Assembly: GCF_000143415.4 (NCBI RefSeq)
Contig: NW_003314287.1
Location: forward strand, 828,203 to 892,202
DNA: 64,000 bases
Origin: Selaginella moellendorffii
Taxonomy: Eukaryota; Plantae; Lycopodiophyta
Direction of reading: 5' to 3'
The notes under the pieces were generated by a model, which saw nothing but the letters and a program-made list of their open reading frames with translations, had not been told where the DNA came from and ran no database searches. Of the stretch, positions 13,404 through 64,000 are shown one piece after another (the first letter of the stretch is position 1; each line of letters opens with the position of its first letter). The translations under genes and the position numbers were made by a program.

Positions 13404-13691
13404 ATGCTTTATTTCGTTAAAGTGGGACTTTTCATTATCCCACTTATGGTGTGTGGCCACATGCCATTTTTATAACAACAATAAAAAATTAAAGTTTTAA
13501 CTTTATAATTTATAAATTAAAAATTTTTCATATGATTTTGTGTTATAATATTGTGAAATATAAAAAAATAAATTAAAAAACTGATAGAAATATTAATAAA
13601 TATTAATTAAGTACTAGGAAATGGCATGTGGACACATGCTAATTAATGTCCCACTTTACTGAATAAGTCCCACTTTAACGAAATAAAGCAT
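13404..13691. mobile_element. 288-bp MITE, non-autonomous member of the 46155-58461 transposon family
   Basis: 27-bp perfect TIR ATGCTTTATTTCGTTAAAGTGGGACTT and TSD CAAG. It interrupts an LTR whose uninterrupted copy reads CCCTACTAAGTCCC at 20101. Subterminal sequences match both ends of the large element. Confidence 0.9.
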
Positions 13692-43600: not shown

Positions 43601-44710
43601 AAATATGGAATTTGCACAATATATGCAATAAAAAGTGTTAAAGATACCCAGGAAATTGACTTCAAGAAGTCAATATTAAAAGTTCTAAAGTGGAATGATT
43701 ATATCGATAGAAATTGAGATTACTCGAGAATGAGTAGTGGGATTGAGATAGAAAAGGTGTTTCCAACAATTTTAGCAAGAATTAAACTAATAAAAGGGAG
43801 AAAACCACCACAAATGGTCGAATGAGTCTCTATGTTAGAAGGACTATACTGTAAGCTCCTGAGTTTGGACTTCCCGGGAGGTCACCCAGCCCAGTACTAT
43901 TCAAACCCAAGGACGCTTAACCCCAAATATCCCAAGACCCTTAACCGATTGGAAAAGGGGGTGCACTCTTGTTCATGGGCCCTTTCCCTCTATATTTGAA
44001 CCCAATGGATCGTCTCTCAAGTCGTTCCCTTTGGTTGCTTACAATCCACCACGCTTCCCTGCAAGTTCACGCCCTCGTGAATGGAAGCTGAGAGCCGCAG
44101 CTCTCCCGAGAGCCCCGCTCTCTTGACACCCTACCCCTCGGGTCGAGCCCAGTGGGAGCAAACTGGACCAGCCAGATGTCAATCAACATGTGGTGCGATT
44201 CCCTTAGCCAACCAATAGAGTCGGACCCGAGACCGCTCTGATACCAAATGTAAGCTCCTGAGTTTGGACTTCCCGGGAGGTCACCCAGCCCAGTACTATT
44301 CAAACCCAAGGACGCTTAACCCCAAATATCCCAAGACCCTTAACCGATTGGAAAAGGGGGTGCACTCTTGTTCATGGGCCCTTTCCCTCTATATTTGAAC
44401 CCAATGGATCGTCTCTCAAGTCGTTCCCTTTGGTTGCTTACATATACTCCTTAGAGGATGAATAAGGCATGGTGAGCCTTCGGTGTCAAACCATTAACAA
44501 ATATTTGTTAGGTGCTAAAGATGAAAAGGGTAATACATGTTGGTAGAAAGGCTAGTTTAGCACAAAAAGCCTGTACCCAGATGTTGGGTGATGCAATAAC
44601 CATTGGGAAGTCCAAGGCTAAAGTGAATACGAACCAACAAGCAAAATATCTTGGTAAAATATTCAAGAGCTAACTTTAGTTCCCTTGGGAGATCGAATGG
44701 TCTATACCCC
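40671..44710 (+). mobile_element. Decayed family-B LTR element: LTR 40671-42105, PBS 42109-42119, internal remnant, partial LTR cut off at about 44710
   Basis: LTR is homologous to 19698-21292 (reverse complement). TGGTATCAGAG follows ...CTTACA. GAGTCC/GAGATG tandem repeats lie in the LTR. Confidence 0.75.
43850..44442 (-). mobile_element. Complete Cassandra TRIM (593 bp) with two identical 194-bp LTRs containing 5S rRNA-derived A/C boxes; TSD TATAC
   Basis: LTRs 43850-44043 and 44249-44442 are identical by eye. Minus strand reads GTTAAGCGTCCTTGGG...TAGTACTGGGCTGGGTGACCTCCCGGGAAGTCC, like the 5S internal promoter. PBS TGGTATCAGAGC is present. Confidence 0.93.
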
Positions 44711-46843
44711 GGCGATGGTCCAAAGTTGAGTTGAGCTCATGAGTTGAGCTCAATTCAACACAAGTCAACTCAAGTCAACATAGTCAATAAGAAATATTAC
44801 AAAGGAGATCTAAATTGAACAAATGAAAGTTCTAGCAAACTTTAAAATATTAAAATACATAAATATCTATGTTAAAAGTTTCTATAAGATTGAATTGTTT
44901 AAAAAAGACAAAGTTCATGAGAACCTATCTTTTATAAAACTATATTATTTTATTATGACAACTGTTACAGCTGTCATATTTGATTTGACTACTTAAAGAT
45001 GGGAAGCAAGGAAAATACAAGATTCGTGAATAAGACTTATAGTGCAAAGGAATGTGAGAATGTTAATTTTGTTTCACTACCACAATCTTCATATTACACT
45101 CCTGGTCCTTATTACCCATTTGGGAATATGGAGATCACTATTACGATTGATAAAAATGCTCCTGTTACTTCTAAAACAACAGTCCAGAGCAAGAGAAATG
45201 AAGAATGAATAACACAGCGGAAAGCACCAAGAAATCTACTCCATAAAACTTTCCATGACATTTGTAATTTACATATTAATTCATATTAAAAACTCTATTG
45301 CTTGCCTATATCGCAATCCTCTCATATGATAAGACCAAGGTATATTTTGCAGTGAATCCTCATTAAAAGTTTTTGGAAATTGTTATTAAATAATGATAAA
45401 AGAAATCAAAATCTTTCGAAAAAATCAAAAGTAATATCACATCAAAGAATCAACTTTATATACATTTCCAAGACTAAAAGGCAATCTCACATGAGAGAAT
45501 GGTAGCGTGCCAACGTGCTCTACCACTATAATGTGGTCTATATTTCCTTGCAATTTATTTCCCTAGACATTTGGCATGTGTAGAAAAGAATATGTGTAGC
45601 AAAGTAGGATTCATCATAATGATAAAGCATGTGTATACACGATAATCTAAAATTCTAGAAGCTCTTATGTTTACAAGAAAGCTATGATTATGAAGCCCCA
45701 TTTCCAAGACTGACATTTAAAGAATCTGAGTATTGTCAGTGTCATAATAAATAAACCTCATTCCCAAGACTAAAACTTAGTATATAAACTATTTAGAAAA
45801 GTTATAGTCATTGTAGGTTTTTTGTTCTCCTTGAGCTCCTTAGAAGTTTATATTGAAATGGCTCAAAGGAGACCCATTGCTAATCGTACTTGGCCCCTCA
45901 GCATTTCATATCAATTTCCACCTCCATCCCCAAATTCTACCAACATTCCATCTTCAGCTCCACATAACAATCCTTTTTTTGCTGAGGGCTCTAGTGAAGC
46001 TGAATTAGAGCTCCCTATATATGAAATTCCGGATCTTGCTACTAGAGAGGGATTGCCTCCAGCGCTTCAAGAGCAATGCCACATGTTTTTGCAAGATCTT
46101 GCTCCTGACATGGCAGGACTACTTGAAAGCACAAAACGCTATTACATTCGGTGTAAGCTCTATTTCGTTAAAGTGGGATTTATTCAGTAAAATGGGACTA
46201 GGTACAAATTTTCAAGTATTTGAAAATGACGTGAAATTATATGTTTTTTGTCCAGGGGCTAGACATATCTGGGGCATGGTGACTAGCGCGGTGACTTTGT
46301 GTCCAGACTGAGTCCATCTGGTTGTATAAAAAATCTCATTGTCAAGGTGAACAAGCCGAATCTGAAGCTAAAGAAGAGCGATGGCATGCGCGCACACACT
46401 ATTTGTTTGTTCATTGAGCGTGTGGTGAGCTTTCCAAGATGAACGTCATTCCTATTAGCCAGACATATAACTTAATGGTGAGAACATTTAGATATTATTC
46501 AATGTTATCTTTTTCTAACGAATCTAATTGTGAAGGTGTAGCAAGAGGCATTGCTAGTCTGGAGAAGTCATTTAACTCATTTGACCCTTAGTGTATTTTC
46601 ATGAAACTAAATAACATTCATATTATTAAGGAATTTCTCTAGTACCTTTTTTTTACGACATAGAGGCTTGCATTTCTTTCAAAGGTGATTTAGTAAAAGG
46701 CCTGAGGGCACATGCCATTCTATTTCTCAGACCGGTATTAAGATATACTAGTGCAAAGGGCCACATGCCATCACGCCTCCTCTGATTCAGATTCGGATTG
46801 TTCACCTTGAAATAAAATACATTAGAAACTTAGTAAAGGAATA

Positions 46844-49729
46844 TTAATGAATCTCACCTTGAACCCGGGTTATGAATGCTCTTGCTGCATCTCTTGCATG
46901 GTCTGGCAAGGTGATGGTGGCACTCTGCTTCCGCATCCAACCATGCACAACATTATCCACCGATATGCTCATGCTGGGATCCCTTGGATTCAGCACCCAT
47001 CTCTTTTCTAGGCAATCCTTCGTATATCCGGAACTTGGCTTGAACCACTCCACAGTTACATTGAAGGAGTTAGTTTCTGCGTCCTCCTCTGCATCAGTGA
47101 TGCAGCGCCCCACCCATATCATTTGTTTTTTATTACTGGGTCTGACAAGCACGACCATTCCTTTGCAGACCTGTACTGGATTGAATGCTGAATCCGGCTT
47201 CTTGTTCCTCGGCCCACAATAGTGATCCTCAACATCGTTATCTGTCACTGCATTTCCAGAGGACATTGTTCCGCTACTATCTGGTGCTCTGGGTTCTGGC
47301 CAAAAGGACTCTTCCAATTCTTCATATACAACCGGCCCATTTTGGATAGCAGATATAATCTTCTCCCAGTATTCGAGCAAAGGCTTGCACCTCTTAAAAT
47401 AGGATTCTCCACCAAACACCAACCCCCTCTTCCAGAAGGCAATATGCTGTCTAATCCCGGCCACTATACTTTCCTGGTCTTTGAGTCCATCCGGGTGCAT
47501 CGGCCGTGGGGAACCCTGAGGAATCATAGGTTCCCCAGTTATGGGATCTCTCTTGAAGAGTTCAATGCCGTCCACTGGCAGCCACACTGTGTCCCATTCT
47601 CTCATCTTGTACCTCATCACTGGAGCACCGTCACGCATGCTGAAATGAAACTGAAGAGGCTTGGAGTGGCCAATCAGCGTTTCGGATCCGTCCCTGATGT
47701 AGCCTCTTACAAACCCCTTAAAGTCTGGAACCTCTGTCACAAGTGCAGCTTCAACAGTGCCTTTGATGCAATTTTGGAATTCATCGTAGAGTTGTGGGAG
47801 GGTGAGGACATTGGATCGCCGGAGGGACTCTGCCAGGTGACTGAACATGGCATCGACGTCTTCATGAGTGTGCCCAACCATGAGAAAGCCAAGTGTAACC
47901 ATTTCAAATATGCCTTTGGCAACAAGCATCGCCAAGTACGCGAAGACGTACATGTTTTTGTTCTCACTGCCAGCATTGTCTGTTTGGAGCAGAAGATGGG
48001 GTGGAAGGCCACATCGGCCGCAAGAACTTCCTTGAGATTCTGCTTCGTTTGGATGAGGCTGTGCATTCACCGGGCGACCAGCCTCGTCGTAATGGCATGA
48101 GGCCTCACGTGATAACCCTACAATCTGACGGCCAACATATTCACTGGGATGGTATGGGGCCCCACGCGATACTGCAAGCCTTTGCTCCTCCTCCAGCTGA
48201 ACCCTGTATGGGGTTCGATCGACAAGGGCCTTATGCAAGGGTTGGCCGTTCAGCTCAGTCTGCGCACTTTGCAGAGACCTTAAGTGTTTTGCTAAGGACG
48301 CAATCATCATGTTTGCACCCCCGCCACCCCATAGAGGTACAAAGAAGTTCCCATAGTTCTGGGCACCATGCCCATGAGCGATTATGCCAAACAGAGACAC
48401 AGGCAGCTGCATGGATGAAGAGATTGCCTTGGGGGCAGGATTGAGTCGAGGTAAGCACGTCTTTTTCTGATCCATTTTGTCGTGGATGATGCAGAGGTAA
48501 GAGTCAGGTCTCTCCATGGAGAGAATCCTGTTATGATAATATGCAGTCCTGCAGCTTCTCTGCTCGATGTTGTGGTCGAGCCGCCTTCTAACCAACGTCT
48601 CTCGCTCTTGAGCGCTGCAAGAATTCTTCGACAAAGCCATTTTGATAGCAGTGCACTCGTCACACTTTGAAAAGCTGGAGTACTTTCCTATACTCACATC
48701 CCTGAACCTGTTGCTCCACAATCTACTAAATCTAGATTGGCTCAGCTTCCTGTAGCCATTACTCTGGAGTTCCTGATTCACATCTTCCAATATGGCCCCC
48801 TTGGTATACATGGAAGGGAGAACTCGTTGGGTGTCTCGTGTTCCATCTTCCAAGAGGCGGGTTTTATGTGGTTGCTGCTCGCTACATGTCTCGACAAACC
48901 TCTTGAAGATTGCCTCTCCATATACAACATGACCCCTGGTTTTGTGCGTACCGTCGTTCCCATGGACTGCCTGTTGAACCCTTTGTTCCTCGAACTCAGT
49001 TTTGATTCTGTAGAATGTGGTTCGAGGGACTCCATAAATGATTCTCCATGCCTTCATGCAGACCAAACCCCTCTGGAAGACCATGCCCCCCACCTGATGT
49101 TCTAAAGCATCAACAGATGACCGTAATGCCTCATACACAAAATTGCGAGCTGCCTTCCAGGACAATGTCTTGTATCTTGCTCTCTCCTCTTCAATAGCAT
49201 CCCAATCAGCATGTTGACAGCACCTCCTCTTGCAACAAGCAACTGTCGAGACCATTCGAACCTCCATCGCCATTTTCTGCCTTTTCGGTTCGTTGCTCAG
49301 ATCCCTTTGGCTGCGCTGTAGGAAGGTGTACTTTCTTTTCCCATGAAGAGATGTTCTGTCATCAGTTGTAGTGGTGTTTGATTGTGAATCCTTCACATTC
49401 TCAAACACTAAATGCCTCAATTTCCACCGCACAATGCTTCCAATAGTCAGACTGTTTTCTTCTGTGTCAACAACCTCTAAAATTGCAACTCCAATATCAT
49501 CCCAGCCCAATTCTTGATTAGCAACTGCATCTCGTGGATCGACAACTATGGCTAAGCCCTCAGCTACCACCTCCCCCTCGGGGTTGTATAGAAACACCTT
49601 CGCCTGAATCCATGTAACACGGTTCATAAGATCCACGGAGGGAACATGCGTCGCACGTGCGCTGTCCCCAACATCTGCTTTCTTCGGAAGATTTTTCAAG
49701 GCAACAACAACATTTACCCCGACGACCAT
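46844..49729 (-). CDS. Sola-like DDD transposase, uninterrupted 961-codon ORF (true start may be downstream)
   Basis: Cys motifs CCKRRC and FSKCDEC. Acidic triad candidates HDKMDQKK, LQTDNAGSENKN and FLMVGHTHEDVDAMFS. Lies between TIRs with a 4-bp TSD. Confidence 0.85.
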   Translation of the reverse strand: MVVGVNVVVALKNLPKKADVGDSARATHVPSVDLMNRVTWIQAKVFLYNPEGEVVAEGLAIVVDPRDAVANQELGWDDIGVAILEVVDTEENSLTIGSIVRWKLRHLVFENVKDSQSNTTTTDDRTSLHGKRKYTFLQRSQRDLSNEPKRQKMAMEVRMVSTVACCKRRCCQHADWDAIEEERARYKTLSWKAARNFVYEALRSSVDALEHQVGGMVFQRGLVCMKAWRIIYGVPRTTFYRIKTEFEEQRVQQAVHGNDGTHKTRGHVVYGEAIFKRFVETCSEQQPHKTRLLEDGTRDTQRVLPSMYTKGAILEDVNQELQSNGYRKLSQSRFSRLWSNRFRDVSIGKYSSFSKCDECTAIKMALSKNSCSAQERETLVRRRLDHNIEQRSCRTAYYHNRILSMERPDSYLCIIHDKMDQKKTCLPRLNPAPKAISSSMQLPVSLFGIIAHGHGAQNYGNFFVPLWGGGGANMMIASLAKHLRSLQSAQTELNGQPLHKALVDRTPYRVQLEEEQRLAVSRGAPYHPSEYVGRQIVGLSREASCHYDEAGRPVNAQPHPNEAESQGSSCGRCGLPPHLLLQTDNAGSENKNMYVFAYLAMLVAKGIFEMVTLGFLMVGHTHEDVDAMFSHLAESLRRSNVLTLPQLYDEFQNCIKGTVEAALVTEVPDFKGFVRGYIRDGSETLIGHSKPLQFHFSMRDGAPVMRYKMREWDTVWLPVDGIELFKRDPITGEPMIPQGSPRPMHPDGLKDQESIVAGIRQHIAFWKRGLVFGGESYFKRCKPLLEYWEKIISAIQNGPVVYEELEESFWPEPRAPDSSGTMSSGNAVTDNDVEDHYCGPRNKKPDSAFNPVQVCKGMVVLVRPSNKKQMIWVGRCITDAEEDAETNSFNVTVEWFKPSSGYTKDCLEKRWVLNPRDPSMSISVDNVVHGWMRKQSATITLPDHARDAARAFITRVQGEIH

Positions 49730-50220
49730 CTCTCCTCATTCAATAGCGACTACATTCCCATCGAAGACAGTCTCTACTGATACAGCAGCATTGCCTTCCC
49801 CAGGCCTTTGACAGTGTATAACAAAGTTCCGATCCATATACACACAGGGTCCCCTTTTGCAACTCTCTTCCCACCATTCTCAATGTGACCCTTTTCCCCA
49901 AACCCTGTAGGCCATTATCTGTAAATGCTCATTAGAACTTAAGACCATACACAAAATGATTGGAGAATGGCCTAAATCATAACATACCAAACAACCTCAA
50001 TAGCATGGGGTGGGAGGCCTCATGCCATCTTGATATACACACAGCTGCAGGCAAGTAAAAACATACATGACAATACGCTAGCCATGAAATTGCAAGGGCC
50101 CAAGATGGCATGTGGCCTCATGCCATTTCTAAATGTGGTCCTAAACCATTCCATGGTGAACATACCAGGAAGCACAAGTGCCGAATATCAAGAGGAAGCG
50201 GTAGCCACACCAAAGACAGT

Positions 50221-50340
50221 GCCGCTCGCAACACCGCAACTACTCGTAGCGCCGCTCGCAACACCGCAACTGCTCGTAGCGCCGCTCGCACAAACTGCCA
50301 CTCGCATAAACTGCCGCTCGCAATGCCGCAACCGCTTGTA
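50221..50340. repeat. Short tandem repeat (30-bp unit GCCGCTCGCAACACCGCAACTRCTCGTAGC and decayed copies)
   Basis: Direct inspection. Confidence 0.8.
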
Positions 50341-51137
50341 GACGCATAAACCACAGCTCACAACGCCGCTTACACAAGCAGCGCTCACTGCGGTCAGCGG
50401 AACCAAGAACACGGCGCACAAAAATGATAGACCTAGGAATGAGTTCGAGAATTCAAAAATAACACACGCTTGAACGTCACATCAAATCCTCTGACAAACC
50501 AGATCTTATGATTCCTCTGACAAATTTCAAACTGAGTAGCTTCTAGACTTTGCTGTCGGAGGTTGAACTTTGTCACATCATGTCCTTGCCTCGATCCAGC
50601 TGTGCCATGTCAGTGATTCGAACTTTGCCATGCCATGTCAGCGATCCGCACCAAGATTATTCGCCGTGTAAAGGAATAATTATGCTGTGTGTGTACGTTC
50701 ATTTATGGCAATATAAGGCCACACGCCATTCAAAGAATAATGCTAGTCGAGCATTTTTTGGTGCATTTTTGGGTTCAAAATTGCATGAGCCCACACACTA
50801 TAAAGTTTACCTGTACCAAAAATAGAAACAACTTTATTTACTTGGGAATTTAAGTGGTTGAGGCATTTTTAAACTTACAAACACATGCCCTATTTACATT
50901 CTTTTGGTTGCTTAAAATTCAAAAATATTATAAACCTTTCTTTTTGCATTTTCAATGTTTTCAATTATGGTTTTTGATTTTCGCAGGACCAGCCTAGTAA
51001 TCTATTTGCATCCCGTCATGTTTATAGCTAGCTTTCGTTTGTCCCCTTCGCTAGCCTGAGATACATCTGCTCGGCATCTGCCTCTTACAGCATTTGCCCA
51101 GAGAGGGCATCTTTCTTCACGCAGCATTTGGCACATG

Positions 51138-51169
51138 TTTAGGGTTAGGGTTTAGGGTTTAGGGTTTAG
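51138..51169 (+). repeat. Interstitial plant telomeric repeats (TTTAGGG/TTAGGG), telo-box-like
   Basis: TTTAGGGTTAGGGTTTAGGGTTTAGGGTTTAG. Confidence 0.85.
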
Positions 51170-52632
51170 CAATTCAGTAGCTTGATAAACATGCAAATAC
51201 AGAACTTGATGCAAAATCCTTGGATATGTCACAATGCCCCTAGGACCATAAACACATTTCAATAGAGAGGGTCCTTTCATTTCATAACTCCTTACGTAGA
51301 TCTTGGTGAAACCAGAGTTAGTGAAGTTGGTTTCTTGTGATCCCGCATCTGATTGTGATGTCCCTTTGCAGTGTCGATGGAAAGGTCAATGCACACCAAA
51401 CTGTAGAATCTTGGAGCAAAATAACGGTCGGATCTATGGCAAATGCCCCTGAAACATTGTAAGGCTCGTGTGGTCTCATGTGGTGTCCGATCGAGATGCT
51501 TCTTTGCAGGGTCATCAAGAAGGACATTGTATACCATTCTGTAAAATCTAGTTGCGATCTAACGGTTGGATCTCCAGGAAACTCAAAACAATCTCGCGCG
51601 TGTTAGAATATTCTAGGAATATACTCCTATGTGCTCCTGAAAATGGCATGCGGCCCCACGCCATTCAAGAGATAACGCCAGATGATGCCGAGCATTTTTT
51701 GGTGCATTTTTTGGGATCAAAATTGCATGAGCCCACATGCTTGAACGTCACATCAAATCCTCTGACAATTTATTTAGCTGAACATCTGGCATTTTTGGAA
51801 ATACAAGATGCTTTGGAATATCCAATCATGCATGGTATAAATATAGCGAGGGTATTAAATGATATCCCAATCATGATCTTTCTTTTGGATTTCGCGTGCA
51901 TGCAGTCCGAGGAATGATGACGTTGCGGATTTCTTTTGGATTTCACGCATGCGCGCGCCGATCCAGAAATTAATGGTGGCGCCCAAGTCCGAGAAATGAT
52001 GACGTGGCGGGATTACCAACCGTCGTGACATTTCGCGCGTGTGAGGTTAGGTTTTGCATTTTGCTTCGTACTCGCGCTCGCACACTCGCGCTCGCATCGC
52101 GCTCCCACTCGCGCTCCCACTTCTCTACAGGTTTCTCGTGTGCATCGGCATCCACTCGCGCTTGCATCACACTCGCGCTCGCATCGCGCTCGTGTGCATC
52201 GGCGTCCACTTCAAGACACACCCAGTTTGTAACTTCGCCGCCAACTCCGCCGCCCACTCCGCCACCCACACGCAGCCCACTTGGCGTCCCGGGAGATTTC
52301 AGCGCCACTCTCCAACTGTAAGTGGCAGAGTAGCCTTCCTGCTACGATCCGCTGCACACACAGTGCACATTCGCCAGCGAGTCCGGTTGTCACGCCTCCA
52401 TTCGGCTTCAAATGGTAAGTCTTTTAGGCCAAGTAGAAAATGGCATGAGGCCACATGCCATTCAGTAGCAACATTGGCATGCACCGATTGGGCTCTCGAG
52501 TGCAGTCCGGTTACAGATGGCGTGTAGCCTCACGCCATCTTAGGATGCAGCCTCAAGACATCTGATGCAGTGGTGAATGGCGTGTGGCCTCACGTTATTT
52601 CCAGCTACTAGCTTTTCATCTGTCAGCTCTAA

Positions 52633-55600
52633 TTGTTGTGCATTTCTGAACAGGCGAGGAATTGCGTTCTTCTTCCAGCCACTGTCAATGTGGATGCAGA
52701 GAAGGGGGAGGAGCTCACCAGTTGGACTTTCGGGATAGAAGGCGAGGATCTGAGGCTGTACAACACAGATGGCGGGAGAAAAGAATGCATGGGGACCCTC
52801 ATCCAAGTGACAGACACTCCATGCAGTTCCATGCAAGAATATGGACTGGCACTTGTGGTAGAGACAGCGTCTGCCTTCAAGATCCACCTTGCACATCCTA
52901 GCGGCTTCCCGGAGGGGGGCAGCGGCTATGAGGAATTCCTAGAGGGAGCTAGGGAGAGGTTGTCCAGGAGGCCCACAATTTCAAAGACGCTGCGGGTCTA
53001 TGAAGATCACATGGAATCCACGGACCTCACCTACGGCGATGTTCAAAAACTATATTCCAACATTGAGCCGTTGAGAGTGACTCCAGTTCGCGAAGCAAAG
53101 GGGAAGGGGGTTGATCTGGAAACTACCTCGAAGCAGAAAAGGGTGGTCAAGCTCAAGCCGACGTCCGACTCTCCTGCTCCAAAAAAGAAGCTACTTAGTG
53201 ATGCCATTGCCTCGGGTTCGAACACTACACCCACCAAAAAGAAGAGCCGCAAAGAGCAGAAAGAGCAAGAAGAGGCAGCAAAAATCGTCGCAGATAATAG
53301 TACTTGTTACTATTCCAACAATGTATATACAATCGACGTGAGCCGTATCGACATCCAAAGCAAATACAACCACAGGCTAGTATCTGATGAGTGGGTGGAG
53401 AAACTGAAGCAGAAGATGCTGGCAAGTCCAGTAACACCCGACATCGCAGACGTGATCCCCTACTACCGAACAATGAAGGGCGAGACGAGGTTTCCAGACT
53501 TGATCAATAGGAAGGTGTTGGATGATCAGAACATCCGGTTCTATGCCGTCTCCGGGCAGCATTCTAGCTTGGCGATGCAAGAGATAGTTGTGGATATTAT
53601 GGTGGGCGAGGAGGTGAAGAAAGTCTTCAAGACAAGAGTTGTCCGCCTGATAAAAGGCAACTCGCCCCTCCGATCTATCATATACATCTCCCACGCGCAG
53701 AATGTCAAGCAAGAAACGTGCTACAAATCGGGTCTGCACGAGACATTGGCACGAACACGGAAGCTCTGGGTTCAACTGAAGAAGCCACAAAAACCAGGAC
53801 AAGGACGTGCACTAGCAACTAGCGCCTGGCAGGTAAGCCTCGTTGCATGTGGCATAGCATGTGGCCTCACGCCATTTCCATTGCAGGAATTCTCGAGTCT
53901 TCTCTCGAAAACACTGGGGGTCAATGACACACTCAGCATCCATAACATTCTACTCGCGACAAAAGTTGTTTTTGACAAATGGGTAGATGTGCTGAGGAGG
54001 TACCATGACGGGGAGTTGCCAAACTCAATGGGTGTGGAGGACGGCCGGAAGCCCAATGATTTGAAGCTCAACGCCTTGCGTTTCTCGCGGTCTCTAGACG
54101 ACGACGACCTTCTGACAGTGGCTAATGCTCTTCTACGTGGTGAGGTTGTCTTCAACAAGACCAAAATGACTCCCGGCCATATTGTGACATACGAGGACTT
54201 GTGCACGACTCTGAGAGCTCGTGCGCTATTGAAGGATTGGATCTTCGAGCAAGTGGCCGTGGAGAGGGTGAGCATCGACACCACGCAAGAGATGATGGAA
54301 GCGCTGGAGTTGTCAAATGAAGACATCGACAAGTACGTGAAGGGGGCCCCCAAGTTCATCGATCTGTTGCGGGATGCCACGAAAAGTAAAGCTGAGAAGT
54401 TGGATCAGTATCCAAATTTCATTAAGATTGATGTCGACCGCCGGCTTCAGAAACAGCTCGACCCCGCAGCAGAGGCCTATCGAGAACCTTACCGGGTATA
54501 CTTGAATTCGGATGAGGATCAAAGGTGGAGGAGCATCGTTTCCCGCGGAGATGAGCAGGTCAAGAACATCTTTTGTGTGATGGACTTCACAAACGAGGAG
54601 ATCACTCATGCAGACGAAGTCAGCTCCATCATTGACTTAATGGTGGGACTTGCGGAGGTGGAATCTTCAGTCCACTATATGATCTACGACTCCGAATCCT
54701 ATCACAAGTTCTGGAAGGCCTTGAACGAGGTGAAGGCTCGGTTGAAAGGCAAGGAGATGCGGGAGATCCATGGGATAATGGCTAAGAAGAAGATACCGAC
54801 GAATGTCCGCATCTTCACACTCGCCCTTGTTATTGGTCCTGCAGCAGAGTGGGACTGGAGTGACTTCCCAGCTTCGTTCGACAAGGCCAATCGAATTGAT
54901 CTGAGGGAGGTCAATTTACCCATGCCTGAGGAACTGAAGACGGCTATGGAGCTTTCGAATCCAAAGAAAGCTCCAGGTGCAGCATGGGAAATGCTCAGTT
55001 GGGTCTTCAACGCAATAGCGGGTGGGTCACCTGCTTCCGACTCCAAGGGCAAATGCGTTGTCGAGTACAACTGCGGCGGACTATTCTTTCGAGCCGCATT
55101 ACTCAAGGGTGTCCTGTGTGTTGCGGTGACAAACTCCATTGAAGAGATGACTTCAATGGAGCATATAATTACAGTTGCCAAAGAAAAACAGTATCTTCTC
55201 TGCGAACCTGGTGAGTACACACTTTAAGTTTAAATGTTATCTCACAAGCTCTGTATGCAGGAGCGTGGCCACCCCCAGATGTTGAAACGGCGTTAACAGC
55301 TACTGTTGAAGATACCCATGTTGGGCCGAGCTCACAACCTGCACAAGGTAAGGTCACGTGAGGCCTCACGCCATTTTGATTATAGATCGTTGTGAATATT
55401 CAGACACGAGGACTGAAAAGCGCACTGGTGGCGCATCGAAGAAGGACAAACAGAAAAGCAATAGGAAAAAAGGAGGTACAAATTATATTTGCAATGGCGT
55501 GTGGTCTCATGCCATTCCTTGCAGGAGAAACTTCTTCAAAGGCAAAACAGGCAAGCACCAGCCAAGCTCAAACTGACAGTGGTCATAAAAAGCGAAAGCA

Positions 55601-58019
55601 CGTTGGACAGTCGTCGAGATCAGAGGCGTTTGATTCGAAAAGGAAGAAGGGCAACGAAAAGATGATAGGTAATGCCTCGCGGTTATGGCGTGTGTGCTCA
55701 TGCCATTCATTGCAGATCAAGGGCTGAGTGAAAGCAGGCAGTCACCACCTCATGACTCAGATTCCTATGGCAGACTCCCCTTCCCCAATCTCAATGGAGA
55801 GGTACAATGGATGAGGGAAGCTTTTCAAGGCAGGGCCACGTTTTTCTCATCTCGTCGTCTTCGAAGGGTGCAAGAACGTGCAGAAACCATGTTAAGACAG
55901 TCGGGTGAGGATACGGTCCTAGGTCACGCACTAAAACAGGCTATGGATGTCTTGTATTTTGAGATGGAGACTCGGCCAGATGATTTTCCCAAGATGGTCC
56001 TGGAAGAACAAGCCATCCAGCCTGAGCAGCCTATGGAAGAAATGCAGGAGGGGGATGAGGAGCCAGAGAAAGATAATGAGCAAGAAGAGCAGAAGGATGA
56101 AGAGGAGGACAAAGAAGAGGAGGACGAAGAGGACTTGGATGGTCCTCACAATGGTGACGATCACAATAACGACGACGACGATGATGACGACGATGGCCAG
56201 CCTGAGGTGGCCAAAGAGCGGCGGAGGAAGGTCATACAAGACAAACCATCAGGTAAATAATAATACATCCATTCCTAACCTTTTACCATTTCTAACATTG
56301 TCCATGTGGGTCGCAGAGCAAATGGTAAGTAGAGATTATTCAGTTGAATTTACAAACTCTAGCCTTTAGTGTCGAGGAAGGATAGTGCCAAGCAAGGGTC
56401 GAAACGTATGTCCAATCCTTCAGAATCAGCAGTGCGCCCAAGTGATATCGGTCCTAGTTCCTCAATAGCAGTTGATGGTAAATACAGTATAGTCGATTCA
56501 ATATGCTAATGAGTTTGTTTTTAGTAGCACGGGAGGATACCATCTCAATCGAAGGGAGATATTTGGACATGCATATGGATCCGCCAGTGGACTCTACTTG
56601 GCTGCAAGAGTCATCAGAGCTGGTGGAGGCTACTATCCATATCAACGCCAAGCAAGCTGACCACGCTCCACTTGATGCTGCCCATACCACTGAGTCAATC
56701 TTGTCCACGTATCCAACTGACGGTGACCAGGCGCCATTGGACCCACATGAGGCCGCCCCAGCCGCCGAGCCGGTCGTATCCTCATTTCCAACGGACTCAA
56801 CGTGTGCCCAATCGTCTGACTACGCGCCGTTGGAACCTCCCTACACCGCCCCTGCTGCCTGTTCGGTCATGTCCACTTTGCCAACGGAGGCACCAGCTGA
56901 AATGGCGTGTGATCACACGCCATCGGAACCACCCCATGCCACTGTTGAGCCAGTTGTACCAGAGTCTACAGCTGAAATGGCATGTGCCCACACGCCATCG
57001 GATGCGATTGACCCCACATTGCAGAGGAGAGTATTTCCGCCCTTCACGTTTCCTCGACCAAAACCCTCTCAACGACCATCGGGAGCAACATTCGCTAATA
57101 TTGTAGATGGTAAAATTGACTTGTACCATTTTTTATGCTAACGCATTTCATTTCAGAGTCACGGCGAAGGTACTATATCGTTTTTGATCTGAACGGTGTC
57201 CTTTTCTCCCATGAGCGTGGCTCGTCCTCGAATGTCATTGCACCCTCCAAAGCCTGCGGTCGCAAGTTGGTCAAAAGAGACAGATTCACATTAATCACAC
57301 GGGAGAAACTGCGGGATCTAATAATGACCATGCGACACTTAAAACAGAGGGCCGGGTTCAATTTACAATTGGGAGTTTGGACATCCATGATGCGCCACAA
57401 TGCATTAACGTTGCTACAGATGATGCACGATCAGACGCGAGTAATATTACCATTTGACTTTCTCCTAACGCAGGAGGATTGCTTGACTATGGTCCATGTG
57501 AGGGGTAGCAAGCCCATCTTCGTCAAGCCAGAGGCTGTAGTGATGAACCGGACTGCTAGCTCAAGTGAAATCCTCATCATTGATGACTCGCCGATTAAAA
57601 CTGCAGCGAACACGCACACATATGCAGTGCACCCCATCTCTTGCAGTATGGAAACTAGGGAGAAGAAACCGTATGTTCTGGGGGACCTTGCAAAACGGCT
57701 TGGAGCGATGGTGATAGAGAACCGGCCAGTCCAGGAGGTGGCTGCAGAAATCAACCAAATGGCAGATGGAACGGTATATCAGAAGCCATTTGATCGGACA
57801 GACACCAGTCATCATTTATGGCATGTATATTGTCTAGCCAAGCACTATCCGCATCTCCATAATCTGCTCAACCGGATGGGTTCTTCGACCACTGAACATG
57901 AGCGTGGACGTATTAGAGAAGAGATGGCATTACTATTGGGTTTAAATCCTGATAGTGTGGAGAGTGATGAAATTCCAAGATTATTGTATAGGCGTTGGAG
58001 GCAAAAAATAACAGTCTGA
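52633..58019 (+). CDS. Transposon cargo gene, multi-exon: ParB/Srx-like domain, degenerate amino-MTase-like domain, acidic/low-complexity linker, C-terminal FCP1/NIF HAD-like domain (could be two genes)
   Basis: IDVSRI....YNHRLVS..WV..L...ML...FYAVSGQH (ParB-like); FCVMDFT and KCVVEYNCGG..FRAALLKG..CVAV (MTase-like remnants); YIVFDLNGVL, GVWTS, ILIIDDSPIK (FCP1/NIF). Candidate small GT-AG introns at 53833-53886, 55211-55260, 55476-55524, 55669-55715. Confidence 0.65.
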
Positions 58020-59231
58020 GATGGCATGTATTTATTTAAAAATGTAACTTATTATGGCATGGGGTTCCATGCAATTGTATTAATATTAAAAGACAATTCT
58101 TTGAGAGGATTTGCATTATACTAGAAGTGTTACAGCATGTTATTGGAAGTCTACGAAGTTGTTTTATTAATAATGGGAAAGTAAAGATTGAATGGGGACT
58201 TGGGCTCCACCTAGACTCGGAGCAACTGAGCCAATATTAAAAGGATGGAAAGAAATTGGACGACGATGACAAGGAGAAGAGAGAGGTGAAGCAGTGGCAG
58301 GGGGAGGAGAAGTGATTGAGTAGACATTTCCTTGTTTAAAATAAAATGGCATGTGCCTCAATGCAGTTGAATTTTGTTATATTTATATACTATATAAAGG
58401 TTTGGAAACCTTATTTTACAAGTGGGATAATGACAATTCCCACTTTAACGAAATAGAGCTTGTGTCCAATATGCTACTTTTTCTTGGACAAGACAAATGG
58501 CTCTATGGGTTTACAAACTTTTCTTGAGCACTGTAAGAATTGCCCAACGGTAGGTCTGGAAAATGTGCACGTGTGGATGTACAATAGATTCAAGAATGAA
58601 TTATAAACACATACCCACTATCGCTTCATGGTGAGGAACAACATCCCCTTGGGAAACACTGCATTGGCTAGTGCAAAATATGGGGTTTTTAGGCCACCCT
58701 ATAATGGAATGTAAGATCTAGAATTACTTTACTATACTATAGTATTGTCACTATTAAAAGAAAATAGGTAGGTAACATACCTTGTTCTAGAAGGTGCTAT
58801 CATATCACATACAATTGTTTACAAAATGTTGAAGGAGGAGATGGCAACACATAAGCGCTACAAAGTGATGGTGACAAGTGAGAATAATAATCTATAATTA
58901 TGGTATCTGACACTGACACTGACATCTGACAATTTTACTGACATCTGACAATTTTATTGACATCTAACACTTTCACTGACATCTAGTATATAATAAGCTT
59001 TCCATTTTATGTAAGGATGCAATTAACTTTCTTTTGCCTCATCATCAACATAATGATTTCTTTTATACTTCCTCCTATATTGGTATTGTGGGGAAGATTC
59101 ACCTTGCATATGTTGAGCCATGGCTTCTGCATAGTCAGAGAGACTTCCAAAGCCTCCAATTCTAGAAAATCCAGGTGACTGTGATCTATAAAATAGAATG
59201 AAATATATATTGAAATTTTAATAAACATAAT

Positions 59232-62200
59232 TTACCTCCTTGAGGTTGAAGGCAACTCACGAAATCCTCTAAGCCGGCGTTTGAAGAAATGATGTTCTTC
59301 AATAGCAAACACCGACCTACCAGAGTCACGTGCTGCCTCCACCATAGAACCGCTACCTGTTGTGCAATCAATCACAACACCATCTGGTGAGCAATAGAGC
59401 TCAAGCAAGACTTGCATTGCCGATGGAGTTCGGAATCGGTACCCTGGAAATGTGTTGCGGATCTGCTCATCCACAAGGTTGGGTATGATGTTAGTGGAAC
59501 TGTCATACCCAGGCAAAACACGTGCTGCACGTTCGCTATCACGAAACCCATCATGTGTGTTTCTGCAAAAGGCATGATAGGTCCACATCATAACCTGGAA
59601 AATAAAAATGTTTAGAAATTAGATAAAAATATAGAATACATACTCACCTTTTCAGGCTTCCCTTGGACGCCCCTCGTATCAACACCAATAGGATCCATGA
59701 TGCACCCAGAAGAGAATGACTTGAAATGAACTTCTGCTGCACACGTCATAAGCTTATACATCTAGTTGGGGTCGTTCGGTAGGATGAAGACGACATGGCT
59801 AGCTTCGAGCATAAGTGCTTCGGACAATAGGAATGCATCGCGCAAGTGGTCAAGTGTGAAAAAGTTCCAATCCTCAACTTTCCCATCGATATCTAAAAGA
59901 CCATTTGGAAAGTCGAAAAGAATGAAGTCCGCAACTGGCAGCACGGGCCTTTGTATCTTTCGGCACCAACGGTTGAACTGGCGGCATATATCCATGTTGA
60001 TGTTGTCTTCTGTGAAAGATGTCAATAATCTATTGTAAGAGACAATGAAGATACCCACAATGCCTCGTTGTGTTATTAGGGACACAAGACGGACCTATAA
60101 AAGAGCTAAGTGAATGAAAAAAGTAATAAATAGTATGATACCGTCATATGGCGTGTTATTGATGAGAGTTCCTCCAACTCCTCTTCACGAGCATCTCGTC
60201 GAGCTGGAATGAAATTACTACCAACAGTCATTGCTGCAAAAAACATGTATTACCACCTTTAGTTTGTAAAATTCACTTTTTTTTACCTTGAGGTCGACGT
60301 GATATTCTGTGAACCACTTGATCATCGTTATTTACTGGTAGAACCTGATCCAGATCTTGGTTGTTTGATGGTTGAATTGGAGTCTGTTCCTGATTGTCTG
60401 GTGGTGGAACATGAACTTGATCTGGAGCTTCCTCATCCTCATCTCCATTGTCATTTGCATTGCCATCGTTGCTAGCATTGATAATTTCTTCGCAATCTAG
60501 TGTAGAGGTTTCCTTCCCTAGGAGCTCCAACTCCCAAGGGCATTCTATCTTCCGTGCCTTCAGAACTCTCACAAACATTGTTGGGTACATTCCTCCATCC
60601 CTTACACCCTTTGTAACAAGTGGAGTGTAAACTGGTGCCTCAAATGGCATGCCTCTATATCGAAGATACCTGTAAACAATATATATTAAAAAACAGTCTT
60701 AGAAATCATATTATACTTATAAGCTGCACGTCGCATGAAATAAGGTTGACCATGTTGGCAATCATAAGTTGTTGTGCTTGTAGATTTCTCTGGCAGCCAC
60801 CCCTCTTCGATCCCTTCCAATGACGTGTTGATGTAAGTGTCAAAAGACATGAATGTGCCATTTGGATCGTCACCAATGTGTGGTGTCAAGAACTTCTCAC
60901 CTTCACTTATAGTTTGCGTGATGTAGACAGCCCTTCTCATCATGTTCTCGAATAGTTCTGGCAGTCCTTTCTCTCTGTTCATCAAGTAGACATTGAGGAA
61001 CTCTAGAGTCTCTATCTGTTGCTTATATGGAAACTTCGATTTTGCGATATTGTAAATCATGTCATCTGGAGTTTTGTTCACTGTAAAAGTAACATATGCA
61101 TAATTAAGAAAAATGAAGTGTGATAAATAACTTACATTCATGAGAAGAAATTTTGGCTATAGTCTCTAGCCACTCCTTCGGCCTGTGACTGTCTGCAATG
61201 CATACTAGTTTCTTCAACTTTGAGGACTTTGCATGCTGAATTTTATGCTCAATTTGTACAAACTCAACTGAGAGCTCTTCCCGACTCTTCTCCGGATATG
61301 CAAGTTTGTAAGCATCTTGCTTGACCTTCACCAAAGGCTAAAAACCAAAACAATTAAAAGAGGCTTTTATAAAATAAAAAGGAAAGACATACCTTACACC
61401 ACACAGCAAGCATAAAACTGATTGGGTTATTGAACCAAGTTGTACCGTCATTTCGAGTGTGTGAGTGCCCAACAAATGTTGCGAGATCATCACCATAATG
61501 TTGGCGGATGTCATCCTCACTCAAGTCTGCCAAAAATCGAAGTTGCTCGATATCATGGACAAGATTTTGTTTTTGAACAGAAAACTGCCCAAGCCTACAT
61601 TTAAACACAACAAAATAGGTTAAAGTGGAGTTAAAGGTAAAATTATAAAACTTACGCATTGATCTTTTGGCAGGCCAATATAAGTCTGTTGACATCTAAA
61701 GGTCCCCTCGCGTAGACATGGCCGACTGGAACGTTGATATGGTAGACAAGATCATCGCAAAAATGATCGTCGATACACTTCATCCAAGCTCCATATCGGT
61801 AGTTACTGTCAATAATTTGGAACATTGTCCCCGCAAGCTGTTGAGTCTTAGGATGTCTGATAAGCATGTCATCAAATTCTAGGGACTTCCTCCTTCAAAT
61901 AGGATCCCAACTATTCACAATCTCAGGTGTGACAGTAATGATCTCCATTGTTCCTAGCTTGCAAAAAGAGACTAGAAACATACCAATATTTGTTGCAAGG
62001 CCATTCTGTTTGAACAAGCTGTATATATCCGGGTTGATATACTTGGATGCTGTGCGGACAAGGTTCGTCTGCTGCAAACGGCAAAGGGGGATTTCTCTGA
62101 TCAAGTCACAAGGGCCTGGCCACTTGAGCGCCTCAAGTGTTTGGTGAACTGCTTTTTCCCTTGTTTGCATAATAGTCTCTTGGAAGCGCTTGTCCACCAC

Positions 62201-62581
62201 GTTGTTAGGAAGGTCTGCAACTCTTTCAGCTCCAGGCTGTTTCTCAGGTTCCCTATCGTGAACACCACTAGATTGCCCAACTTCAGGGATTTGCGTTGGT
62301 GGTGGTGGCAGTGGTGGCAGGGGCAGAGGCAATAGTGGTAGTGGTGGTGGCAATGGTGGTGGTGGCAGTGGCGATGGAGGTCGTGGAGGTGGTGATGGCG
62401 ATAGTGGAGGTGGTGATGGTGGAGGTGATGGTGGTGGAGGTGGTGAATCTCTAACTAAATGTGTCTCTGTTGTGCCAATGGACATGTCGATTGTGATGTC
62501 ATCGTCAGTGCCAAATTGAACTTCTCGTGTCTTCTTGGCTCCAACAACCTTTTTATGTGTTACAATTTTTCTTTTTTGCAA
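59232..62581 (-). pseudogene. ParB/Srx-like plus beta-class N4C/N6A DNA methyltransferase-like fusion gene, multi-exon, with two apparent nonsense codons (61895 and 59762)
   Basis: IPLCRL....VR...FQIIDSNYRY.AW (ParB DGNHR-like); DFILFDFPNG (motif IV position); LLELYCSPDGVVIDCTTGSGSMVEAARDSGRSVFAIE (motifs X-I-II). The reading frame continues across both stops. Confidence 0.7.
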
Positions 62582-62667
62582 GAGAAAAAGTTTTATTAGT
62601 CAAACTAAATAAAGATAATGAGAAATTTAAACAGTCAAAGAGAAAAAAAAAATCAAGTGGGCCTAGA

Positions 62668-62980
62668 CTCCACCTCGGGCACTTTGGTTGCCCAGGGGGG
62701 CGTGGCGATGCGAATAACCTCGGGCCCCTGAGCAGCCAAAGTGCCCGAGGTGGCCGGCCCGAGCTCGAGCTTGAGTAGTTTTTCTCGCCGAGGAGCCGAG
62801 GTTATTCAACTAACCTCGGCCCCTCGGCAAGCAAAACTGCCCAAAAACTACCCGAGATGGCCGGCCCGAGCTCGACCTCGGGCAGTTTTGCTCGCCAAGG
62901 GGCCACGGTTATTTCAATAACCTCGGCCCCTCGGCAAGCAAAACTGCCCGAGGTGGCTAGCCCAAGCTTAACCTTGGCCA
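62668..62980. repeat. GC-rich alternating inverted/direct repeat array
   Basis: AACCTCGGCCCCTCGGCAAGCAAAACTGCCC occurs twice, with its near reverse complement (GGGCAGTTTTGCTCGCCAAGGGGCC) in between. Confidence 0.8.
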
Positions 62981-63120
62981 GCAAAGAAGAAATCAAGAAA
63001 AAAAAAGGGAAGCAATGGAATGGAAGCAATGGACTCAAAAAATGGAAGTGGAAGCAATCAAATCGAAACTCACCCTTGATGGCATCTTTCCTCTCGATTT
63101 CTTGATCGTGCTAGATTTCT

Positions 63121-63380: not shown

Positions 63381-64000
63381 ACTCACAATGCGAACAGTAA
63401 CCTAATCTTGGCAGCTACCCTAACCCTAATCCTGATGGCTGCCCTAACCCTAACCAATCTCTAATCCTGGCAGTTCATTCCGAATAACCTAAATCTCAAC
63501 CATCACAATATCTTTGATCTTATTTTATCTTATCATTATTATTATATGTAAATTATGCTTCTTTATTTTGTATATTTTAATGATGGTATAACTAGCACCT
63601 ATCAACATTTCTGTTATTAGAGATATGATATTTTATTTTACAAATTATCTAGAAAGGATGCATTCTCATAAATATTTTGTACATATTTTGGAATCGTTAC
63701 AAGAACTTTAAAGAGTATAAATAAGGCATGTTAAAATATGTTGTACTATATCCATCTATGAATGGATGAATCCTCATCCAGAAATTTATTTTGTGTTGTA
63801 TAAGATCCTAAACAATAGGCACGTGCTTTAAATGTCATTGAGCAGTGTTCACAATTATGGATAAAACTTGAGTTGTACTATGAATCAAATTTGTCATTGA
63901 AGAATAAGATTTGACAAGATTTATTATCATCTACCACTTAAAATTTGACAACTTGACATATCACATGTGCTGATAGTTAGATTGGATCTCTTGGTTTGAC

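Follow-up and report, generated by a model that had tools for sequence, protein, structure and literature searches.

A Selaginella transposon whose putative recognition palindrome lies in predicted micro-introns of its own gene and may double as their branch site

Introduction

Why should a palindrome that looks like a protein-binding site lie inside predicted introns of 38-54 nt, at a nearly fixed distance from their 3' ends? The question is raised by a 12.3-kb DNA transposon carried by the lycophyte Selaginella moellendorffii (assembly GCF_000143415.4, contig NW_003314287.1, positions 828,203 to 892,202 of the forward strand; this whole stretch of 64,000 nucleotides is called the window here). 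The element carries a transposase-like frame and, on the opposite strand, a multi-exon gene that we call gene 2, and copies of one palindrome are dispersed along it. A sequence-only reading of the window had noticed copies in tiny GT...AG segments of gene 2 and had offered three explanations: DNA binding sites housed in micro-introns, an RNA hairpin that regulates splicing, or motif insertions that created the introns. Our analysis points to a putative element-specific DNA site that was probably written into already existing micro-introns, in a register that would let the right arm of the palindrome serve as the branch point.

Results and discussion

A transposon with its own dispersed palindrome

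The element spans positions 46155-58461 (12,307 bp, no strand assigned), with perfect terminal inverted repeats (TIRs) of 24 bp and a 4-bp target site duplication (TSD), GTGT. Its empty site was also found: a contig of the DNA-like run X2 joins 46150 to 58462, with four letters that fit both sides. Summed X2 depth is about 94-164 within the element and 4.5-9.4 on the right flank, figures that are not to be read as copy number. On the minus strand lies a DUF7869 transposase-like frame of 963 aa (46844-49735; Pfam PF25273, E=3e-42; 15 homologues), whose profile matched no solved structure. Gene 2 occupies the plus strand (52412-58019), with its ATG at 52412 and a predicted product of 1639 aa from ten exons, the frame being joined by nine predicted introns.

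The palindrome is a 22-nt dyad of 8-6-8 form, ATGGCRTG-N6-CAYGCCAT. At up to three mismatches the window holds 21 copies: 18 in the element, two in a miniature inverted-repeat transposable element (MITE) and one, weak, elsewhere; 0.17 copies are expected per shuffle of the element. The MITE (13404-13691, 288 bp, no strand assigned) has TIRs related to those of the element, the TSD CAAG and motif copies at 13446 and 13621. Within the element the copies are dispersed at spacings of 57-1956 nt and have unrelated flanks, longer flanks being common to 56902 and 56977 only. Of the 18, gene 2 accounts for nine, with seven in its predicted introns and two in frame in its exons (56902 and 56977, without CTCAY on either strand). 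The transposase frame holds two more, and the remaining seven fall in non-coding DNA elsewhere in the element, which brings the non-coding share to 14/18. The transposase copies, 48092 and 48149, are in frame within a variable loop of that protein (48083-48171, minus strand). The placement in introns that the sequence-only reading described thus holds for seven copies and leaves out the 11 of 18 that are not intronic. Within gene 2 the intronic share is 7/9 (P=1.4e-6 against uniform placement), and introns hold seven copies per 530 slots versus seven per 3768 bases of other non-coding element DNA (P=7e-4).

The two arms vary independently. At the R/Y positions, five copies have A/T and four G/C, while seven have A/C and three G/T (odds ratio 0.95; 19 copies, one with the C dropped). 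The palindrome therefore looks like a dyad DNA site and not like a selected RNA stem, and its sequence pattern makes it likely that it is the transposon's own putative recognition site in DNA. Among the earlier proposals, that of putative DNA binding sites in the element's own introns is the best supported, by confinement to the element and the MITE, dyad symmetry, independent arms, the relatives' own palindromes and a ParB-fold product, both described below.

The predicted introns of gene 2

The 1639-aa frame of gene 2 requires the removal of four motif-bearing micro-introns and five further predicted introns. As first noticed in the sequence-only reading, four copies lie in GT-AG segments of 38-54 nt, and they end 11, 11, 9 and 9 nt before the segment end, AG included. 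These segments, all on the plus strand, are a 54-nt phase-0 intron at 53833-53886 (motif 53854-53875; CTCAC, with its A 17 nt from the end), whose position is conserved, and three predicted phase-1 introns of 38 nt (55348-55385; motif 55353-55374 with a decayed left arm; branch-like A 17 nt from the end), 49 nt (55476-55524; motif 55494-55515; CTCAT, A 15 nt from the end) and 47 nt (55669-55715; motif 55685-55706; CTCAT, A 15 nt from the end). With the 38-, 49- or 47-nt segment left in, the frame stops at 868, 927 and 961 aa, respectively. The 54-nt segment is in frame and stop-free, so outside evidence, from homology, is needed to call it an intron. The intron at 55348-55385 consists almost entirely of motif and is the least secure of the four. 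The three linker introns are all in phase 1 and the linker exons measure 87, 90 and 144 nt, all multiples of three; skipping, for example removal of 55348-55524 as a single intron, would therefore also preserve the frame.

Small size does not set these introns apart. In three hand-modelled host genes (frames of 341, 688 and 155 aa) the 18 introns measure 48-109 nt, with a median of 58, and tiny introns are the host norm. Small size as a hallmark of the motif introns was rejected, since host introns and motif-free introns of 45-52 nt are equally small. The motif-free introns predicted in gene 2 include one of 50 nt (55211-55260, plus strand; CTCAC, A 16 nt from the end), which serves as an internal control, and those at 56253-56369, 56478-56524 and 57110-57156 (plus strand, within region 56253-57156); a further one of 52 nt is placed after the transposase frame (46857-46806, minus strand). 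The 3' end of 57110-57156 resembles those of the motif introns, and it may be a decayed copy.

Three more copies, at 52440, 52517 and 52577, lie near the 5' end of the gene, within predicted intron 1 (52415-52653, plus strand, 239 nt). The CAG or TAG behind each had been taken to suggest 5' introns. A YAG does stand close behind each copy, at 4, 5 and 6 nt (3/3 against 6/33 other half-strands within 12 nt, P=0.012), and all seven intronic copies have one within 11 nt; one 239-nt intron nevertheless fits better than three micro-introns. From the strong donor at 52415, the frame reaches 858 codons with no other acceptor than the AG at 52653; the AGs directly behind the copies yield 1-25 codons, and each trailing YAG would give a premature stop. 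Chains of micro-introns in which every 5' copy has its own intron make up 154 of 437; all 40 of those displayed need four introns and weak donors, and three separate 5' micro-introns were rejected as the leading model on account of these donors. Most likely the three copies share the single 239-nt intron, and the YAGs behind them may be decoys or relics.

A conserved intron older than its motif

A full HMMER search with the gene-2 protein gave 19 hits, of which 16 were aligned and three (P0020, P0022 and P0033) set aside as chance-like; word-based protein searches gave no matches at near or shorter lengths. Named homologues come from S. moellendorffii and from the liverworts Calypogeia and Riccia. 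Aligned with gene 2, the RefSeq S. moellendorffii protein P0035 shows a gap of exactly 18 residues at 53833-53886, between WQ and EF. The annotated proteins P0016, P0021, P0028 and P0034, liverwort proteins included, run through this site without a break. Six gene calls that are unspliced (P0017, P0018, P0025, P0026, P0030 and P0031) read W or F and K, Q or N, then Val (a GT codon), and diverge or stop there. The 18 residues that the segment encodes border a low-confidence part of the fold model.

By homology the intron at 53833-53886 is real, and the alignment indicates that the element-specific motif is much younger than the position it occupies. Because relatives with 22-28% identity have this position in common, the motif did not create the intron, and the earlier proposal that motif insertions created the introns fails for this one; the motif as its origin was rejected on the exact gap in P0035. 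A separate observation concerns P0016 and P0035. Both annotate a single S. moellendorffii gene, and a two-residue difference between them, placed precisely at the conserved intron, suggests alternative donors.

The right arm coincides with a branch-like box

Branch-like boxes of the form YT[ACG]AY were scored in 25 motif-free introns (18 host and seven element introns, those of the right-flank gene being excluded), where they peak with the A 15-16 nt from the intron end (8/25). In the motif introns the spacer ends in CT, which forms CTCAY together with the start of the right arm; the A falls at 17, 17, 15 and 15 nt, and the box is the top-scoring one in each. Sense-strand CTCAY is present in 4/4 motif introns versus 7/32 half-sites of other copies (P=0.006), and antisense CTCAY in 1/4. 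The four end-distances of the motif lie within 3 nt of each other (P=0.006 against uniform placement inside such introns). This fixed distance to the AG is likely due to the right arm (CT+CAY) doubling as branch site. The spacing of 9-11 nt reported earlier is thus real, while its likely cause, together with the fact that tiny introns are normal for the host, had been missed. Both this clustering and the intronic excess given above go beyond chance.

The same geometry recurs in a sibling copy of the element. Just before 55563, a contig of X2 carries a partial further motif with CTCAT, nine bases to the AG and the A at 15 nt, and at least 255 letters unlike the window. The sibling thus holds a fifth motif-plus-acceptor unit, absent from the window copy, with a loose end before 55563, and the number of units differs between element copies.

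These patterns could arise as follows. The dyad would be bound by a dimeric protein that the element encodes, whether the transposase or the gene-2 product with its ParB/Noc fold, and new motif copies would arise by short-patch copying between repeats. Within gene 2, copies would survive in frame in unstructured linkers, or in introns. With host introns of about 50-60 nt, a 22-nt GC-rich insert would barely fit between donor and branch site, and the copies retained would be those whose orientation and register provide a CTCAY branch box with a T/C run behind it. Around the phase-1 linker exons, exon-plus-intron units might be gained and lost in frame by recombination between motifs.

A ParB-like candidate reader of the palindrome

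The gene-2 protein is composed of a ParB/Noc-like domain, a helical domain, a degenerate methyltransferase-like segment, a low-complexity linker and a NIF/FCP1-like domain. Folded with the homologue alignment, the first conserved region has a predicted local distance difference test score (pLDDT) of 82, as opposed to 31 for the single-sequence model. It matches the ParB/Noc fold: the best Foldseek match is Noc (E=8e-4), and the VIA comparison gave PadC (Z 9.2, root-mean-square deviation (rmsd) 3.1, 99 aligned), KorB (Z 8.4, rmsd 2.7, 94 aligned) and, over 203 residues (17-306), pNOB8-like ParB (Z 8.0, rmsd 4.4). For a possible helix-turn-helix after the ParB domain there are, besides the alignment with pNOB8-like ParB, an HTH_17 match in a homologue at E=0.14; the ParB-like part has no Pfam hit. 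Sulfiredoxin-type ParB domains, which do not bind DNA, are matched as well, so DNA binding cannot be read from the fold alone. Further along, a segment is similar to the S-adenosylmethionine (SAM)-binding motif of N4/N6 methyltransferases (in the alignment only; no Pfam hit), and the C-terminus is NIF-like (Pfam E=2e-5). ParB, Noc and KorB bind palindromes as dimers. The gene-2 protein would therefore be the more striking candidate reader, and both the model and the analogy make it a candidate binder of the palindrome.

Palindromes of related transposons

A metagenome scan yielded 80 loci with related transposases, many of them redundant. Four of the closer relatives, L001, L004, L011 and L012, have dispersed palindromes of their own, all different; the window motif was found in none of the 80 loci, except for a chance-like site with one mismatch in three overlapping ones. 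Copies of the L011 palindrome lie within the coding frame, behind the stop and inside a transposase intron of 125 nt, the removal of which extends the frame from 357 to 968 codons; this intron has CTCAC at 17 nt. In L012, three palindrome copies follow a donor that interrupts the transposase. An own palindrome in an own intron thus appears to recur in the family, with the predicted branch overlap only in the window element, where the introns are smallest. In seven loci (L018, L025, L042, L059, L072, L079 and L011) there is a gap near transposase residue 306-316, probably an intron; the window transposase is uninterrupted there.

Weighing the explanations

Several results weigh against a palindrome that doubles as a branch site in spliced micro-introns. 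In RNA run X8, of which about 12 in 100 were read, 195 reads were placed, 192 of them partial, and no splice joint was seen; about 169 of the partial reads are a 40-nt match that runs on into other sequence. Contigs of X1 and X12, which are RNA only by guess, have no joints and cross intron 1 and the intron at 57110 unspliced. X1 also covers spacers and so is likely DNA, and none of the listed pieces of X1 and X12 spans the four motif introns. Splicing of the motif introns is thus a prediction that the reads neither show nor refute. The branch points come from a hand-made score on hand-guided gene models, with n=4 and introns picked by eye, and frame continuity is not unique, as the gene-2 frames can be joined by at least 200 other chains of six GT-AG introns. 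Even the shortest of the 18 host introns exceeds the 38-nt intron by 10 nt, and in the latter only 21 nt separate the donor from the branch A. The predicted RNA stem in 55476 and 55669 buries the branch A. No homologue in the gene-2 alignment covers the three linker introns, and the claim of age rests on 53833-53886. Among the relatives, a clear dispersed palindrome lies near the transposase in only 4/80 loci, and the intronic copy of L011 ends 47 nt before the intron end, away from the branch site, so the overlap is not a family rule. The 80 loci hold no gene-2 homologue, so the transposase may be what reads the motif.

Other explanations account for parts of the pattern. Motif, short pyrimidine run and AG together make a ready-made 3' half of a micro-intron, so that an insertion near a GT in a coding linker might be spliced out and tolerated, or a motif-bearing intron might be copied whole to new sites in the manner of introners confined to the element. 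We consider such an origin unlikely. It would suit the 38-nt intron, which is little more than donor, motif and acceptor, the exons upstream of all four motif introns, which end in AG, the features common to 53833 and 55669 (GCCTCG following the donor, and a terminal CATTGCAG), the extra unit of the sibling copy and the YAGs close behind all seven intronic copies; yet the intron at 53833 predates the motif, similarity outside the motif is weak (score 17, where the best of 46 comparisons without the motif reached 16; p=0.016, uncorrected for six pairs), and the three modelled host genes have no such intron. Crowding could also be the whole cause, the tiny introns being the sole free space in the gene, the position near the AG and CTCAY by-products, and another base the branch point. 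Free room for a 22-mer in these introns is 13-29 nt, and CTCAY occurs in some other half-sites anyway, with n=4. Against this stand the P values for spacing within introns as short as these and for sense CTCAY, the rank of CTCAY as best branch-like box in all four, and the fifth unit of the sibling, which repeats the geometry, and crowding as sole cause seems rather improbable to us.

The third alternative is a palindrome acting as an RNA stem that hides the branch A or offers decoy acceptors and so lowers or regulates gene-2 splicing, a form of self-limitation with premature stops at the 5' decoy AGs. A motif stem is predicted in 55476 (z -2.5), in 55669 (z -1.7) and around the three 5' copies (z -2.0 to -3.6), each AG just behind a 5' copy leads to a stop within 25 codons, and in copy 52577 two changes retain G-U pairs. 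But any palindrome folds, and for 53833 (z +0.45) and 55348 the prediction is a structure other than the motif stem; the arms are unmatched in 10/19 copies without covariation, Rfam gave no match, and copies in spacers, in both orientations and in the MITE need no RNA role. The earlier suggestion that an RNA hairpin regulates splicing is consistent with the stem predicted in two of the four introns and at odds with the lack of covariation between arms, and we judge it the least probable of these alternatives. A putative DNA site placed over the branch point of introns that were already there thus remains our preferred explanation.

A wider and more doubtful proposal builds on it. The element may represent an undescribed transposon family of early land plants with eukaryotic, ParB/Noc-like clamp loading at its own parS-like palindromes; here the same 22 bases would be dual-coded as DNA site and micro-intron branch point, so that recognition code and splicing of the reader would co-evolve, possibly as a self-regulating loop. 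The preferred explanation itself would provide a clean natural example of one short sequence with two readings, as DNA site and as core splicing signal, and would show how a transposon keeps adding self-recognition sites where the introns of the genome leave no spare room. The element also exposes a transposon family with a DUF7869 transposase, element-specific palindromes and a ParB-fold cargo common to lycophyte and liverwort proteins, and offers a small, testable system for the divergence of element-specific recognition codes.

Relation to known systems

VANDAL elements, whose VANC proteins form an anti-silencing system in Arabidopsis, are transposons of the Mutator type. The short motif bound by VANC21 lies in non-coding parts of VANDAL21 (introns, intergenic and terminal regions), and copies of the element have gained and lost it (PMC5735166). 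The window element is similar in having an accessory gene, an element-specific short motif enriched in non-coding DNA, its own introns included, and gain and loss of motifs. The VANDAL motif has 9 nt, no dyad and tandem multiplication, whereas ours is a dispersed 22-bp spaced dyad, in 38-54-nt introns over a predicted branch site; and in place of a Mutator-type transposase and a VANC-family protein the window element has DUF7869, a 4-bp TSD and a ParB-fold accessory protein. TnpA of Spm/CACTA and the AtMu1 transposase also act through family-specific motifs, which are kept in non-autonomous copies; those motifs cluster at the termini, while the window motifs are spread along the whole element, including coding frames and micro-introns (bioRxiv 10.64898/2026.08.24.746577). 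By analogy, the element would work like the VANDAL/VANC and Spm/AtMu1 systems and belong to neither, the proposed dual coding being a new twist.

Like the window element, the replicons that encode bacterial ParB, Noc and KorB carry palindromic sites in large number. The likeness to ParB-parS, Noc-NBS and KorB-operator extends to a ParB N-terminal fold followed by a helical domain. Unlike bacterial ParB, the putative binder here is encoded by a eukaryotic, intron-containing gene on a TIR transposon, has SGQH in place of GxxR and is fused to methyltransferase-like and NIF-like parts; no ParA gene was seen. Symmetrical introner-like introns of fungi are short introns with a palindromic core, copied whole to new positions (PMC8469720), and several short introns with a common palindromic core are found here as well. 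In contrast to introners, only the 22-nt core is clearly common, and the copies are confined to the element, occur also outside introns and in one case occupy an old intron position. Near-identical introns at unrelated host positions were not found, the motif being present in 0/18 host introns and similarity outside it marginal.

The short TIRs (24 bp) and 4-bp TSDs (GTGT, CAAG) are as in Sola2. TSDs of Sola2 are reported to be AT-rich, and two Sola2 proteins show, by eye, DFKEN and SDGA where the window family has HDKMD, DNxxxENKN and GHTHED (PMC3627910). Filing the element under Sola2 was rejected, and its superfamily was left unassigned. A literature search on DUF7869 gave no description of such a transposon family, and one on ParB with transposons gave no such element, the accessible part of PMC4738411 included.

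Other features of the window

Motif copy 48092 in the transposase frame reads CTCAT on the sense strand, with a GAG 15 nt further along, and may mark a cryptic intron. A short plus-strand frame and sequence that looks like an intron (45860-46154 and 58462 onward) are interrupted by the element, and its target may be the gene of another element. To the right of it, a second multi-intron gene (59000-63085, minus strand) has low X2 depth, a N6_N4 methyltransferase segment (59235-59618, Pfam E=2e-4) and GC-rich repeats of its own at about 62660-62980. This gene is probably cargo of another mobile element, into which the 12.3-kb transposon inserted. Short telomere-like repeat tracts stand upstream of gene 2 (51136-51170) and upstream of the flank gene (63400-63460). 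Finally, region 43850-44443 contains two close LTR (long terminal repeat)-like copies with a primer-site-like stretch between them.

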